Positions 41,406-45,679 of a stretch of 64,000 nucleotides of DNA are shown here, piece by piece. The notes below the pieces were generated by a model that was not told the DNA's origin, did no database searches, and saw nothing but the letters and a program-made list of their open reading frames with translations. The DNA is from an uncultured Candidatus Micrarchaeota archaeon (GTDB taxonomy: Archaea > Micrarchaeota > Micrarchaeia > Micrarchaeales > Micrarchaeaceae): positions 201,546-265,545 of the forward strand of contig CAVUGN010000002.1 of NCBI GenBank assembly GCA_963741095.1. The letters are read 5' to 3'. Numbering within the stretch: position 1 is the stretch's first letter; the number at the start of each line of letters is the position of its first letter. The position numbers were made by a program, and so were the translations under genes.

Positions 41406-43352
41406 TCAGTGCCTTATGGGCAGGTCGATCAACGTCTTCCCATCAGAATAGGCATACCTGCCTGTGCCGTCTATATTCCTGCGTTCCACGTAGAACCCTT
41501 CCGGCAGTATCCCATCCTTCATGAGTTTCCTTTGTTTCTCTATCAGGTCGAGCCCATCCACTTTTCTGTGCCTTATGGCTTCACCCCTGATCAAGTGAGC
41601 ATACAGTTCAAGATATTGGCCATGTTTTATCTTGTTTTCGGTGTCTATACTCACAACCAGGCGGTCCTTGACTACCTCCTGCGTTGCGACTATGCGCATG
41701 ACCGATGCCTGTGCCATCGCGCCGCTGCCGTAATAACACACGGCGCACGTCTTCGGCTTGTCCAAACCGGTTTTCAGCGCAGCATTCTGCAACAGACTCG
41801 CCAAAGCAACGAATGTAGCGCCCGAATAAGAGTTACCGACTATGGATGGAAGTTTCAGCGCCTCATTCAGACGTATCCTCTTGATGAATGCCTTGCATTC
41901 ATCCTGCGCCCTCACATCACTCAGCCATTGCCAATAACTCGTTATGTCGGAGTCCTTGTCAATGTGATCGACTATCTCGTCCTCATTCCTGATGCCTGTT
42001 GAAGAATTGCGGTTGAATTCATACAACTTATCGTCAAGCATATCCGTCAATTTCTTGTAGCCGGCCAGAGGCTCTTTGCCGATAACCCTTCCTGGCTCAC
42101 CTGGGATTTTACTTGGAACAACCCTCTTCCCAATCTCATCAAGCAGTTTTGGGTCCTTGAGTCTCAAGTAATGCACGAACAGCGATCCTGCAAATTTCTT
42201 CGCCTGCATCGGGAAAGGTACATGGCTTACAAAATAATCAATGCATTCTACAAGGTCTCTACCGTTGTTTTTGTATTCCTTCTCAAGAGCTTCGACGACT
42301 TTTGCAACCATAAGCACATACGTCTTTTCGGAGAAAGTTCCATGTACAAAAGGCATCTCCTCACCAAATTTCGTAAAGTCCGGCATGGACATGTGCCTGA
42401 ATTTGCTCTCACCCATTACAACTGCAAGTTCCGGATTTTTTGTGACCCACAATAGCGTTGCCGCAGCGCCCTGTGTAGAATCCGCACCTGCGGCTCTCTT
42501 GGAATCGTAGATTGCAGTATCCGAAGTAATGACGAGCGCAGAGCAATTTTCGCCCCTATCTATCGCCGCATGCACGTTATTCACGGCCTGCGTCAGAGCT
42601 ATTCCTCCACCCGCGCAGGCATAAGTAATCGGTACTGGCTGTGCCCCTTTCATCATTTGTATAATCTTCATCTGTATGCTTTTAGGATCCTGATCCTCCA
42701 TCAGAAGTTTAGAATACACCATCTGTAGCGCTGTGGTAAGTTCCGGTTTGCTTCTGTCCGGATTGCTCTCGGTCGCATAATATATGTACCTTATCGGTTG
42801 CTCCTCCAGCTCGTTCATTGCTTCCTTGCTCGATGTCGCATTCTTGATGAACTGGTATACTGCGTTTGCCGCATAAGTCGCATTGCCCTCCGCGTAGCCT
42901 GGAAGTTTTGTATTTTCAATGCCCAAGCCATCTCTTATCAAGCCAGCCTCAACTTTCTTCACCGTATGCAATACTCCATCGGGGTTTTTCACCGGTTCTA
43001 TCGACTTTACCCACTCCGGAGTCACCAACCCTTTCGTAACCATATCCTCGAGCACTTTATTCAACTCTGCTCTTGAAAAGGTGTTCTCCACCACTTCGAC
43101 AAGCTCCGCCCGGATGCCATCAACAACGTACTTCATCGCATTCTTATTTTGCCCCATAACTCCCAAGGCAATTCCTGCAAGACCACCATAACAGAGTATG
43201 CTGTTGTTGTCCATCCTATGCAGATGATTGACAACCTCGTTCTGCATGTTCCTTATGGTGATTGCTTGCGCAAGCTCTTCTGGTGATATGCTAAGAGTGG
43301 GGGTCGTCACGACCATCCTGTCAATTCCAACGGGGACTGATTTCTCTGCCAT
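41406..43352 (-). CDS. HMG-CoA synthase-like protein, unusually long (~648 aa)
   Basis: VGID, ATES..D.SKP, YACAGG (catalytic Cys), SDTAIYD, TQGAAA, SHVPF, VGNSYSGA and YGSGA, with several large insertions. Confidence 0.8.
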   Translation of the reverse strand: MAEKSVPVGIDRMVVTTPTLSISPEELAQAITIRNMQNEVVNHLHRMDNNSILCYGGLAGIALGVMGQNKNAMKYVVDGIRAELVEVVENTFSRAELNKVLEDMVTKGLVTPEWVKSIEPVKNPDGVLHTVKKVEAGLIRDGLGIENTKLPGYAEGNATYAANAVYQFIKNATSSKEAMNELEEQPIRYIYYATESNPDRSKPELTTALQMVYSKLLMEDQDPKSIQMKIIQMMKGAQPVPITYACAGGGIALTQAVNNVHAAIDRGENCSALVITSDTAIYDSKRAAGADSTQGAAATLLWVTKNPELAVVMGESKFRHMSMPDFTKFGEEMPFVHGTFSEKTYVLMVAKVVEALEKEYKNNGRDLVECIDYFVSHVPFPMQAKKFAGSLFVHYLRLKDPKLLDEIGKRVVPSKIPGEPGRVIGKEPLAGYKKLTDMLDDKLYEFNRNSSTGIRNEDEIVDHIDKDSDITSYWQWLSDVRAQDECKAFIKRIRLNEALKLPSIVGNSYSGATFVALASLLQNAALKTGLDKPKTCAVCYYGSGAMAQASVMRIVATQEVVKDRLVVSIDTENKIKHGQYLELYAHLIRGEAIRHRKVDGLDLIEKQRKLMKDGILPEGFYVERRNIDGTGRYAYSDGKTLIDLPIRH

Positions 43353-43505
43353 AATATCACTACGACTTAATCTATTCACTATTTAAATGTCGTTCTGGCA
43401 TTAGTCAATTGTCGTAGTACACCGAAAAAGTGGAAAACAAGGAAAAGATTGCGATTGGGCGCCCAAACAAAAGAGCAAATCCCAATCGCGCCATAGATCG
43501 CCCGC

Positions 43506-44072
43506 TCACAACGACACGCTCAGCCTGGAAAGGTAAGCCCAGACCTTGCTGTCGTCGAACCACGCGTTTGTCAGCACCTCTTTGTCCAGCAGCGGCGTGA
43601 CCACCAGTATGAACGCGCACGTTGTGAGCAGGTGCATCGCGGTGAACGGTATCTGGCCTATGAATGCTGCCTGGAAGGTCATCCCGAACATGAGCGGCGT
43701 AGCCAAAACTCCAGTGACAAAGTCGAAGGCCAGCACCCCAAGAATGCCGCAGCCCAGATACGTCTTTATCCCTACCTTGTCTTTGTTCTTGAAGTAATAA
43801 TGGAATGCGAGCCCTATCACTCCGTAAGTGACGGCAGTAACCAGCGTCCAGGATCCGAGCAGGTTTGTGATGAAATCAAACGAGACCATCGTTATGAACG
43901 GAAATATGAACGAGGTCAGCGCCGAGCTCCTTTTCGAATAGGGCAGCGCCATCGACATTATGGGGTCGTTGTTCGGTATTATCCTAAGCAATCGTATCCC
44001 GTTGGCTATCAGGATGGACAGTACCATCCTGATCTTGTTGCTGTTGCTCATCCTCTTGTTCGGTTTTTCCAT
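43506..44072 (-). CDS. ECF-transporter S-component-like membrane protein, probable corrinoid uptake
   Basis: About 6 TM in 188 aa; RLL..IPN..PI...AL motif of CbrT/DUF6580-like S components; directly downstream of a cobalamin riboswitch. Confidence 0.7.
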   Translation of the reverse strand: MEKPNKRMSNSNKIRMVLSILIANGIRLLRIIPNNDPIMSMALPYSKRSSALTSFIFPFITMVSFDFITNLLGSWTLVTAVTYGVIGLAFHYYFKNKDKVGIKTYLGCGILGVLAFDFVTGVLATPLMFGMTFQAAFIGQIPFTAMHLLTTCAFILVVTPLLDKEVLTNAWFDDSKVWAYLSRLSVSL

Positions 44073-44149
44073 ATCATCTCCATTCTAGATTTTTTATCGT
44101 AACGGCTCGTTGCAAATCCCTGAGAAAGTGGATGCGAAGACTTCCAGTT

Positions 44150-44157
44150 AAAAAAAA
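44150..44157 (-). terminator. T8 tract in the riboswitch leader (candidate attenuator)
   Basis: Eight consecutive T on the minus strand between the aptamer and the start codon. Confidence 0.45.
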
Positions 44158-44183
44158 GGCCATTCAGCGTTTCCATCTCTACC

Positions 44184-44308
44184 ATGCTCGTGGGCATATA
44201 CCGGACCCAGGCAGACTGGCTTACCCATTATGGGATTACAGTTGCGGCACAGCAGTGGATTTTCACCACTTTCCCCTGACTTCCACTGGATCTGAACCCA
44301 GTTGTCCG
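44184..44308 (-). ncRNA. Cobalamin riboswitch
   Basis: Minus strand reads CGGAC...GGTT...AGGGGAA-AGTGG-TGAAAAT-CCACT-GCTGTGCCGC-AACTGTAA-TCCCATAATGGGT-AAGCCAG-TCTGCCTGG-GTCCG. This gives the GGGAA junction, the T-loop hairpin, the GCnACTG and AGCCAG B12 motifs, a closing stem and a downstream ATGC-CCACGA-GCAT hairpin. Confidence 0.88.
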
Positions 44309-44388
44309 TTAATTAGCCTTCATAAACAATATCTATAAAACTATCTCCGCTCCGCGGAACACAAAAAGAGTCGTAACTAAGCGACAGA

Positions 44389-44462
44389 CGCCCCTGCCGG
44401 GATTTGAACCCGGATCACAGGCTCCGGAAGCCCGCGTTCTATCCAAGTTATACCACAAGGGC
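44389..44462 (-). tRNA. tRNA-Arg(CCG)
   Basis: Cloverleaf with GCCCTTG/CAGGGGC acceptor stem, CGGGC-TTCCGGA-GCCTG anticodon arm and TTCAAAT T loop; no intron, CCA not encoded. Confidence 0.95.
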
Positions 44463-44496
44463 AGAAGACCGAAGACACCATCTGACAAGAATGTTA

Positions 44497-44570
44497 CGCC
44501 CTTGTCGGGATTTGAACCCGAATCACAGGCTCCGCAAGCCCGTGTTCTATCCAAGTTATACTACAAGGGC
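44497..44570 (-). tRNA. tRNA-Arg(GCG)
   Basis: Cloverleaf with GCCCTTG/CAAGGGC acceptor stem, CGGGC-TTGCGGA-GCCTG anticodon arm and TTCAAAT T loop. Confidence 0.95.
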
Positions 44571-44638
44571 ACAAAGATTTTAATATGCCTTATGCTTTAT
44601 ACACTTTACACATTAATGCTTTAAAGTCCGCTGATTTG

Positions 44639-45679
44639 ATGGTCCATACCTACCTGACGCTGATCATTCCTGCAATCTGCACATTCATAATAACGATCAT
44701 CACCATGCTCTTCATCAAATCCTACATGCTCGAGTCCGGAGTCACAATAATAGACCACAACAAGAGAAGGAAGACCGTGCTGCCGAGCGGCGGAGGCGTC
44801 GCGGTCGCCTTCGGCTTCACTGCCGGCATGCTTGTCTACATATTCGGCAGTAGCTTCTCGTTCTACACGCCTGTTGCCTCGTTGGAATACCTATTCGCCA
44901 CCGTGCTTTCGGTCATGCTGATAGCCTTCGGCGGGTTCTTGGACGACATCAACGTGAAGAAGGAGATGACAAAGACAACTGACATGATGGACACCCACAA
45001 AGGGCTGCACCAGTGGCAGAAGCCTCTTCTTTCACTGATAGGCGCGATACCTCTGATCGCAATAAACGCAGGCGTCTCAACCATAAGAATACCCTTCCTG
45101 GGCGCGTTCAACTTCGGCATACTCTACCCGCTTGTCATAATACCGCTCGCGATCGTATTTTCGGCAAATGCGTTCAACCTGCTTGGCGGCTTCGACGGGA
45201 TCTCTTCAGGCTGCGGATTGATAATGAGCCTAAGCATGCTGGTGTACAGCCTTGTCTTTGGCACTTACACCGGTGCTTTGGTGTCGGGAATACTTTTTGC
45301 GGCGATACTTGCCTTCATGTTCTTCAATCTTTATCCGGCGAAGGTGATAGGCGGCGACAGCTTCTCCTACTGCGTGGGCGGGGCGCTCGTGGCTGTAATG
45401 ATAATAGGCAACATGGAATCATTCGGTTTCGTGATCCTGGTTCCTTTCATAATAGAGTTCCTTCTGCATGCGAGGCGGAAATTCAACGTCACCGACCTCG
45501 GGAAAAGGAGAAGCGATGGCACCTTCGAGGCGCCTTACGGCAAAAAGATATACAGCTGGACGCATCTGATCATGAACCTCAGGCACCAGAAGGAATGGGA
45601 AGTATCACTATACATGTGGTGCATAGAATTGGGCTTCGTGGCACTGGCTTTTGCGATGAAGCTGCTCTTACTGCTCTAG
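44639..45679 (+). CDS. Polyprenyl-phosphate GlcNAc-1-P transferase (GPT/MraY family, AglH-like)
   Basis: P.GGG, GFLDD, NAFNLLGGFDG and N.YPAKV..GD; ~10 TM; likely start MVHTY at 44639. Confidence 0.88.
   Translation: MVHTYLTLIIPAICTFIITIITMLFIKSYMLESGVTIIDHNKRRKTVLPSGGGVAVAFGFTAGMLVYIFGSSFSFYTPVASLEYLFATVLSVMLIAFGGFLDDINVKKEMTKTTDMMDTHKGLHQWQKPLLSLIGAIPLIAINAGVSTIRIPFLGAFNFGILYPLVIIPLAIVFSANAFNLLGGFDGISSGCGLIMSLSMLVYSLVFGTYTGALVSGILFAAILAFMFFNLYPAKVIGGDSFSYCVGGALVAVMIIGNMESFGFVILVPFIIEFLLHARRKFNVTDLGKRRSDGTFEAPYGKKIYSWTHLIMNLRHQKEWEVSLYMWCIELGFVALAFAMKLLLLL

Follow-up and report, generated by a model that had tools for sequence, protein, structure and literature searches.

Can an archaeon control a gene with a riboswitch for vitamin B12 (cobalamin)? 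The question is raised by a locus within a 64,000-nucleotide (nt) stretch of DNA, hereafter called the window, from an uncultured Candidatus Micrarchaeota archaeon (GenBank assembly GCA_963741095.1, contig CAVUGN010000002.1, positions 201,546 to 265,545 of the forward strand). Natural riboswitches are scarce in Archaea, where, according to the excerpted text of PMC8241225, only the fluoride class has been established by experiment. An initial annotation of the window, made from the sequence alone, had placed a cobalamin riboswitch on the minus strand ahead of a membrane protein gene, had proposed ligand-dependent attenuation at a downstream U tract, and had named an Rfam scan and a survey of DPANN genomes as checks. 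The element is a genuine member of the cobalamin riboswitch family, and more than a chance resemblance, because a second copy occurs in the same genome, 26 distinct archaeal homologues were collected, and their helices covary. The wider picture preferred here is that of a functional, compact, class-II-like riboswitch that is transcribed from a TATA promoter, turns translation off, acts in the window through a leader open reading frame (ORF), and governs a CbrT-like importer working without an energy-coupling factor (ECF) module; the probability of this picture as a whole is put at roughly 0.6.

A covariance-model scan of the whole window against Rfam returned three matches above the curated thresholds, namely two tRNAs and the Cobalamin family, RF00174. 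The Cobalamin match was significant: at 40.0 bits it exceeded the gathering score of 31.5 (E value 1.2e-6), and it covered the complete model, positions 1-189. Every core motif that the annotation had named for a B12 aptamer on the minus strand was found: AGGGGAA, the GGUGAAAAUCC hairpin of P4 and L4, GCAACUGUAA, and AAGCCAG. The genome to which the window belongs (G000; 1.08 Mb in 11 contigs, 94% complete) carries it on a contig of 265 kb, and a second Cobalamin match in this genome, at 36 bits also above the gathering score, lies on contig C4 before the gene for a 753-residue protein with a B12-binding domain. Both elements are compact: where the model has 58 positions of P6, the Rfam alignment leaves just 2 nt for the window element and 4 nt for the other. 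Cobalamin riboswitches of class II, the compact class, lack the peripheral P6 extension of class I, and contact between L5 and L13 plays a part in their function; the extension is absent here, which agrees with class II under this definition. The aptamer is thus an ordinary member of a well-known class in an unexpected host, and we infer that it binds cobalamin.

Helices P1, P2, P3, P4 and P6 are supported by compensatory changes. These were counted in a MAFFT alignment of 24 archaeal copies that was not fitted to structure, with P1-P6 and P13 laid out from the Rfam alignment. Standard pairs are formed by 96.1% of the cells, compared with 27-39% when the partners are slid by 1-3 columns, and the count of pairs that change on both sides is 13, whereas shuffling gave a mean of 5.2 and never reached the observed value in 500 rounds. 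Pairs changing on both sides make up four of five in P1, three of five in P2, two of four in P3, and two of five in both P4 and the inner part of P6 (P6b). For P3, two compensatory events favour a four-pair register, CAGG with CCUG, over the register of the Rfam alignment itself. No variation among the archaeal copies was seen in P5, the outer part of P6 (P6a), the P13 stem or the proposed kissing pairs. A second alignment, which includes bacterial-type sequences (40 matches, 35 distinct rows) and, being fitted to the model, leans towards structure by construction, shows two-sided changes in 24 of its 32 pairs, the three of P13 among them. Folding of the MAFFT alignment with RNAalifold mis-registered P4 and added spurious pairs, and was replaced by the Rfam-derived structure together with the covariation counts.

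The distribution of the element was surveyed in several genome sets. RF00174 is present in 6 of 61 genomes of relatives and in 4 of 151 genomes sampled evenly across the phylum, all four belonging to one order; among 14 control genomes, matches occurred only in seven bacteria, and the four control archaea gave none. A covariance model built in this analysis, R1, matched 13 of 151 genomes of the order (7 of 83 among those of high quality), and G000 alone holds two copies. Further stretches were retrieved with a 22-letter core pattern in which L5 was fixed. Genome contigs yielded 23 stretches (17 archaeal riboswitches, 5 bacterial ones and 1 non-riboswitch) and metagenome contigs 12, of which 6 were of archaeal type; removal of identical copies and addition of two from the R1 search of the order left 26 distinct archaeal copies. 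The records that hold this riboswitch core bear the title Candidatus Micrarchaeota archaeon or uncultured archaeon. Together with the RF00174 match, these relatives in Micrarchaeota records bear out the proposal of a cobalamin riboswitch in a DPANN archaeon. One candidate, L025 from a Thermoanaerobaculia record, matched the core pattern only, with no riboswitch around it and no R1 match, and was discarded. Literature searches, which did not extend to Rfam species lists or GenBank feature tables, found no published cobalamin riboswitch in an archaeon; they likewise found nothing linking Micrarchaeota with riboswitches and nothing mentioning DUF6580, the family of the downstream protein. Archaeal Cobalamin elements may already be listed by database pipelines, because the present one was found by a standard Rfam scan.

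The TTTATA box reported in the annotation is present upstream of the aptamer, and the same geometry recurs in the family: 23 of the 26 archaeal copies have a TATA-like hexamer 72-82 nt ahead of the conserved core, which places it 24-25 nt from P1. A search of 43300-44700 for sigma-70-like promoters gave none. Given the usual spacing between TATA box and start site at archaeal promoters, the transcript is predicted to begin at the base of the aptamer, some 0-3 nt ahead of P1. Tandem tRNA-Arg genes with anticodons CCG and GCG (44387-44463 and 44496-44571) stand directly upstream of the riboswitch promoter on the same, minus, strand.

Downstream of the aptamer, every archaeal copy carries the same hairpin, P13, with stem CCA/UGG and loop CGAGCA. 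Four bacterial-type relatives with an identical L5 (L017, L018, L033 and L040) were available for comparison. The CGAGCA loop occurs on other stems in three of them (CCUU/AAGG in L033, ACCU/AGGU in L040 and GUCC/GGAC in L018), and L017 has a 7-bp stem with the one-letter loop variant CGAGCU; since the same loop is borne by differing stems, the loop is the conserved part of P13. L033 and L040 both derive from metagenome contigs and carry classical hairpin-plus-U terminators, and L033, at 103 bits with the archaeal model, is a candidate for the bacterial source lineage of the archaeal element. The downstream hairpin of the annotation was found, while the kissing contact proposed with it, CACG with UGUG, is possible but neither the sole nor the best supported register. 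L5 (UGCCG) can form five pairs with the P13 loop read as CG(A)GCA, one A being bulged, and this register is favoured.

The position of the start codon gives the platform its probable meaning. An ATG is found within 7 nt 3' of P13, at 4-7 nt, in 25 of the 26 copies, and in L028 the true start is 5 nt away from P13. The platform ATG begins the long regulated ORF in 19 copies and a short leader ORF in 6. Because an invariant P13 hairpin is followed 4-7 nt on by a start codon, the conserved platform points to control of translation initiation. In the copy L023, from a Micrarchaeota record, the 40 nt that follow P13 contain none of ATG, GTG and TTG, although the frame of a B12-binding ORF continues there intact; the cause could be a non-standard start codon, mutation of the start or an error in the sequence.

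The window is one of the six leader-ORF loci. Its leader ORF crosses the T8 tract, which is read as Leu-Phe-Phe, and ends 25 nt inside the DUF6580 gene in a different frame. Leader ORFs stand at the same place in L024, L026, L027, L037 and L041. Stop codon of the leader and main start adjoin directly (TGAATG) in three of them, L024, L027 and L041, and overlap (ATGA) in L037; the main start at each of these loci carries a Shine-Dalgarno (SD) sequence of GGUG type. Because leaders with abutting or overlapping stop and start codons occur at these other loci, relay through leader translation appears to be a recurrent design in the riboswitch family, and control in the window is probably relayed in the same manner with a looser geometry. 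The leader peptides of L024, L027, L037 and L041 (25-32 residues) share a middle motif, which reads ARAAERI in L027 and L037 and ARTAAPI in L041.

The T8 tract of the annotation is real, as a metagenome contig from run X2 spans 44106-44259 without a difference; DNA runs X1, X2 and X5 cover parts of the locus. The tract, C UUU UUU UUA in the leader frame, is a classic slippery run, and the frame of the transporter is the -1 frame of the leader ORF. A TAG at 44085-44087 in the -1 frame, 12 nt before the transporter AUG, would end a -1 slip just upstream of the main start. The transporter AUG is preceded by the SD-like sequence GGAGAUGAU, with a duplex energy of -4.2 kcal/mol against the 3' end of the 16S rRNA. 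This 3' tail reads ...GAUCACCUUAA in G000, compared with the usual ...CCUCC, and the 16S match (C1:98605-100598) is 1994 nt long against 1478 model positions, which leaves about 500 extra nt as an intron or insertion. The possibility that the spacer is a mobile or repeated element was discarded after a blastn search with 44060-44190 against the genome and all loci returned only the query itself and chance words of 12-14 nt.

Table 1. Positions of the riboswitch, its platform and the regulated gene in the window.
Feature	Position	Strand	Basis or remark
Archaeal TATA-like box TTTATA	44334-44339	minus	sequence; 25 nt upstream of P1
Cobalamin riboswitch aptamer, compact form	44187-44324	minus	RF00174
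P1 helix	CGGAC 44308-44304 / GUCCG 44206-44202	minus	sequence
P2 helix	44302-44297/44290-44285	minus	laid out from Rfam alignment
P3 helix	44278-44275/44211-44208	minus	CAGG with CCUG register
P4 helix	44270-44266/44258-44254	minus	laid out from Rfam alignment
P5 with L5 loop	44251-44243	minus	laid out from Rfam alignment
L5 loop UGCCG, proposed kissing partner of P13 loop	44245-44249	minus	invariant in 24/24 aligned archaeal copies
P6	44241-44216	minus	laid out from Rfam alignment
P13 hairpin (CCA-CGAGCA-UGG), expression platform	44182-44193	minus	CACGAGCATGG in 26/26 copies
Leader ORF, 42 codons	44048-44176	minus	AUG 44176-44174, 5 nt after P13
T8 tract (U8 in RNA)	44150-44157	minus	in leader ORF, 25 nt after P13
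SD-like sequence GGAGAUGAU	44073-44081	minus	directly before transporter AUG; weak match to 16S anti-SD tail
DUF6580 membrane protein, 188 residues, candidate solitary corrinoid transporter	43506-44072	minus	PF20221 and predicted ECF S-component fold

The protein encoded downstream matches DUF6580 (PF20221) marginally, at 28.7 bits against a cut-off of 27; its homologues at L009, L032 and L038 score 29.9-33.6. An AlphaFold2 model built from 51 homologues (predicted local distance difference test score 93, predicted template-modelling score 0.86) has six long helices and a C-terminal helix. In a Foldseek search of the PDB with this model, ranks 1-22 are all ECF S-components (FolT, ThiT, RibU, BioY, PanT and others), with probabilities of 0.89-1.00, template-modelling scores of 0.46-0.73 and E values of 0.014-0.7. 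A DUF6580 profile searched against the PDB at E <= 10 gave a sole match, to 6FNP chain A (CbrT), over nearly the full length and with an E value of 0.0047; motifs common to the two are IPNxxP, GxWT, Y and H. The S-component-like character proposed in the annotation is therefore supported by the predicted fold, with the likeness to CbrT coming from the profile. Membership of a BtuM-like group, also proposed, was not supported: the PDB profile search gives CbrT only, and among the invariant or nearly invariant columns of the 51 homologues there is no cysteine. Invariant residues of the protein include His147, Asp66 and Asp117. Homologues of the membrane protein come from sources such as Candidatus Micrarchaeota, Micrarchaeales and Diapherotrites.

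The annotation had seen no ECF T subunit nearby and considered a solitary transporter. EcfT (PF02361, CbiQ/EcfT) was not found in any of six DUF6580-bearing genomes, namely G000 and five others of 86-93% completeness, EcfA not having been specifically searched; the same search matched 11 of 14 control genomes. An ECF module, for which EcfT was the component searched, is thus not seen in the genome, and the DUF6580 transporter seems to act without one. FecCD and Peripla_BP_2 gave no matches in G000. Because these two families and EcfT were not found and the DUF6580 gene is single, its product appears to be the only recognisable candidate for corrinoid import in G000. The closest homologue, P0002 (84% identity), has a called N-terminus that is 10 residues longer and begins MVM. 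This start would be the platform product if the hairpin ATG there is in frame about 11 codons before the transporter start, and spacer length may then differ among close relatives. Directly downstream of the DUF6580 gene, 126 nt away, lies a gene for a 657-residue protein (41406-43379, minus strand) with matches to 3-hydroxy-3-methylglutaryl-coenzyme A synthase at residues 246-313 (below the Pfam cut-off) and 456-586; its first 240 or so residues are unmatched.

The genes under the same switch are consistent with a B12 regulon. By family assignment or close similarity, 21 of the 26 loci have B12-related regulated genes. DUF6580 proteins account for seven loci (four pass Pfam and three were assigned by 63-71% identity) and PF02310 B12-binding proteins of 400-780 residues for eleven (seven pass the cut-off, four fall short of it at E <= 8e-5, and two have a DnaJ domain); PduO-type adenosyltransferases were assigned by Pfam at two loci and a Peripla_BP_2 (BtuF-like) protein with an Ig-like N-terminus at one. 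Four loci have no Pfam match and one was not scanned. Strong DUF6580 homologues occur in 6 of the 151 genomes of the order, with the riboswitch directly upstream in five of the six. The protein behind the second copy in G000 (C4:114792-117192, loci L002/L061) consists of an unassigned N-terminal part of about 290 residues and a B12-binding domain with a DxHxxG-like motif; it has homologues under the same switch in 10 other loci, and where a DnaJ domain is present it is C-terminal. A role in B12 capture, storage or chaperoning is a guess.

Consumers of the vitamin are encoded in G000 as well. The annotation had suggested a class II ribonucleotide reductase elsewhere in the genome as a plausible consumer, and NrdJ was found on the contig of the window (TIGR02504, 555 bits against a cut-off of 400) and in all six DUF6580-bearing genomes. 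G000 further encodes a PduO adenosyltransferase and three B12-radical-SAM proteins. Two loci place PduO under this switch, and NrdJ is the essential consumer; both features suggest that adenosylcobalamin (AdoCbl), or corrinoids generally, may be sensed.

In the proposed mechanism, transcription would start from the archaeal TATA promoter at the foot of P1. With corrinoid bound, the aptamer would capture P13 through kissing of L5 with the P13 loop, and the captured P13 would present a folded structure 4-7 nt before the start codon that keeps the small ribosomal subunit off. High B12 would accordingly mean that expression of genes for B12 acquisition and activation is off. In most family members the blocked start codon would be that of the regulated gene itself. 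In the window, low B12 would allow the leader to be translated and the mRNA to be completed and used, whereas at high B12 the untranslated leader would be prone to termination at or after U8 and ribosomes would not be delivered to the transporter start. The corrinoid imported by the DUF6580 protein would serve the AdoCbl-dependent NrdJ, the PduO adenosyltransferase and the B12-radical-SAM enzymes.

Several observations weigh against this picture. The covariation of the P13 stem stems only from the bacterial-type sequences in the model-fitted alignment, and in the minimum free energy fold the 3' strand of P4 takes the P13 region as its partner. Neither L5 nor the P13 loop varies among the archaeal copies, which leaves the kissing contact with no support from covariation, and apart from CACG with UGUG a register of GCAUGG with CUGUGC is possible. 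SD complementarity at the platform starts is weak (mean -3.3 kcal/mol, with only 2 of 25 reaching -6), and it is weak genome-wide, at -3.7 before the first ATG of long ORFs compared with -3.0 at internal control sites; sequestration of an SD sequence was accordingly rejected, in that form, as the central element of the mechanism. In the window the transporter start comes 104 nt further on, with a weak SD-like sequence of its own, and the spacer has no significant structure (fold of 44055-44200, z = 1.03); the gene could therefore be translated without the leader. As for the protein, the Pfam, CbrT-profile and best Foldseek matches are all weak, and in genomes of 86-94% completeness an EcfT gene could lie in the missing parts. 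The sixth DUF6580 gene, in genome G145, has no riboswitch and is preceded by a plain promoter-like region.

The alternative that survives best is purely transcriptional attenuation, in which B12 binding would halt the archaeal RNA polymerase at U8 with no role for translation. This is the mechanism that the annotation had proposed, and it is now considered unlikely, though not negligible. Oligo-U tracts can by themselves terminate archaeal transcription, and the tract confirmed by the independent contig lies 25 nt after P13. Runs of T>=7 on the long ORFs of G000 number 12 on the sense strand and 72 on the antisense strand, a hint at most, since the genes were crudely defined and codon usage is a confounder. 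The only RNA-library run, X17 (share 0.07), holds a contig with the aptamer of a relative, which differs from 44170-44279 at 6 positions and by 3 gaps; this contig runs into seven U at the corresponding place, a weak hint that the platform-then-U-tract arrangement may be shared by that relative; the expression runs were searched as contigs, which cannot show transcription. The same contig, however, reaches 90 nt beyond the aligned part and thus past the tract. Among the 26 archaeal copies, a run of T>=6 within 130 nt after the aptamer is found in the window only, and a run of T>=5 within 130 nt after P13 only in the window and in L009, where a T5 lies inside the coding sequence. In 19 of the 26 the ORF starts 4-7 nt after P13 and therefore leaves no room for a terminator. 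No hairpin precedes T8, no alternative pairing between the aptamer and T8 or the spacer was found, and a kissing loop 25 nt upstream has no known means of altering archaeal intrinsic termination. A bacterial-type terminator was also sought at T8 and not found, the consensus scan giving three unrelated sites against 1.6 expected. A possible role for T8 is that of an archaeal termination signal specific to the lineage of the window.

A less probable alternative is that the locus is a decoupled relic, its spacer of about 100 nt having split the switch from the gene, which would leave the aptamer in control of no more than a short, meaningless ORF and the transporter under constitutive expression through its own ribosome-binding site or a promoter in the spacer. 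In favour of this, none of the other 25 loci has the spacer (44073-44172), no further copy of it occurs in the genome, and the main AUG is preceded by the SD-like GGAGAUGAU and, at about 20 nt, by A-rich sequence; the MVM extension of P0002 would fit a much shorter spacer in that organism. Against it, the aptamer and P13 are fully intact, and the R1 score of 159.6 bits is among the best of the family. The leader ORFs at five other loci, four of them with a stop abutting or overlapping the main start, and the arrangement apparently shared by the X17 relative also speak against a relic. Finally, a chance covariance-model match or mis-binned bacterial DNA is very improbable, for although 40 bits is only 8.5 above the gathering score and cobalamin riboswitches are overwhelmingly bacterial, the element is embedded in a contig of 265 kb and surrounded by archaeal genes (those for RtcB, a histone-fold protein and two archaeal-type tRNA-Arg), behind an archaeal TATA box with no sigma-70-like promoter found, with 26 covarying homologues in Micrarchaeota records and a coherent, B12-related regulon.

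Translational control by the conserved platform, probably relayed in the window through the leader, is the preferred reading. A bolder extension of it is offered tentatively, by analogy with riboswitch-controlled Rho termination in bacteria. Corrinoid would block initiation on the leader and thereby cause translation-coupled termination at U8 inside the leader ORF, and the element with its 25 sisters would make up a B12 regulon native to archaea, centred on a solitary CbrT-like importer and on an undescribed family of B12-binding proteins of 500-780 residues, some with a DnaJ domain. If true, translation-coupled termination at U8 would be a form of attenuation not described in Archaea. The Micrarchaeota family, with its archaeal promoters, offers a compact system for riboswitch control with archaeal transcription and translation machinery, and its archaeal-style platform deserves experimental work. 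It marks what may be a B12-scavenging regulon in genome-reduced DPANN symbionts that rely on AdoCbl for deoxyribonucleotides through NrdJ, and it points to DUF6580 as a candidate corrinoid importer independent of an ECF module and to an uncharacterised B12-binding protein family.

Two known transporters can be set beside the DUF6580 protein. CbrT is the cobalamin-specific S-component of ECF-CbrT from Lactobacillus delbrueckii (PDB 6FNP), and in the assay of that study, as given in the excerpted text of PMC5997447, solitary CbrT gave no growth, which indicates that it needs its ECF module. DUF6580 resembles CbrT as its sole PDB profile match, in the shared motifs, in the predicted six-helix fold class and in its B12 context. 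It differs in that no EcfT was found in the six Micrarchaeota genomes that bear it, and the sequence similarity is remote. BtuM, of Proteobacteria, is a solitary S-component-like cobalamin transporter with a cobalt-binding cysteine as its hallmark. DUF6580 is like BtuM in combining a predicted S-component fold with a B12 context and apparently no ECF module, and unlike it in having no sequence match in the PDB profile search and no counterpart of the BtuM cysteine.

For the mode of output, the closest parallel is provided by the B12 riboswitches of Mycobacterium tuberculosis, which the excerpted text of PMC11260477 describes as coupled to translation of a short upstream ORF. The window, L024, L027, L037 and L041 resemble them in this respect and differ in aptamer subtype and domain of life. 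The leader ORF of the window, moreover, stops 25 nt inside the main gene and not at the start of that gene, and coupling in the window is proposed from sequence. Within the Archaea, the fluoride riboswitch of Thermococcus kodakarensis is the only one experimentally established and is presumed to be translational, according to the excerpted text of PMC8241225. The two have in common that they are natural archaeal riboswitches, one of them known from its sequence, and they differ in ligand, aptamer and host phylum.

The nearest relatives of the aptamer itself are the bacterial class II cobalamin riboswitches (clan CL00101; RF00174 and AdoCbl-variant). The P1-P6 core, the four-way junction, the T-loop-like L4, the B12 box and the absence of a P6 extension are all shared with them, as is a downstream P13 at the translation start, placed where it could kiss L5. 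The Micrarchaeota family is set apart by its archaeal host, its TATA box and a predicted transcript start at P1, and by the little SD complementarity in the region that would be sequestered. The intrinsic terminators of the bacterial-type L033 and L040 are likewise absent from the archaeal copies, and 6 of the 26 archaeal copies would relay the signal through a leader ORF.

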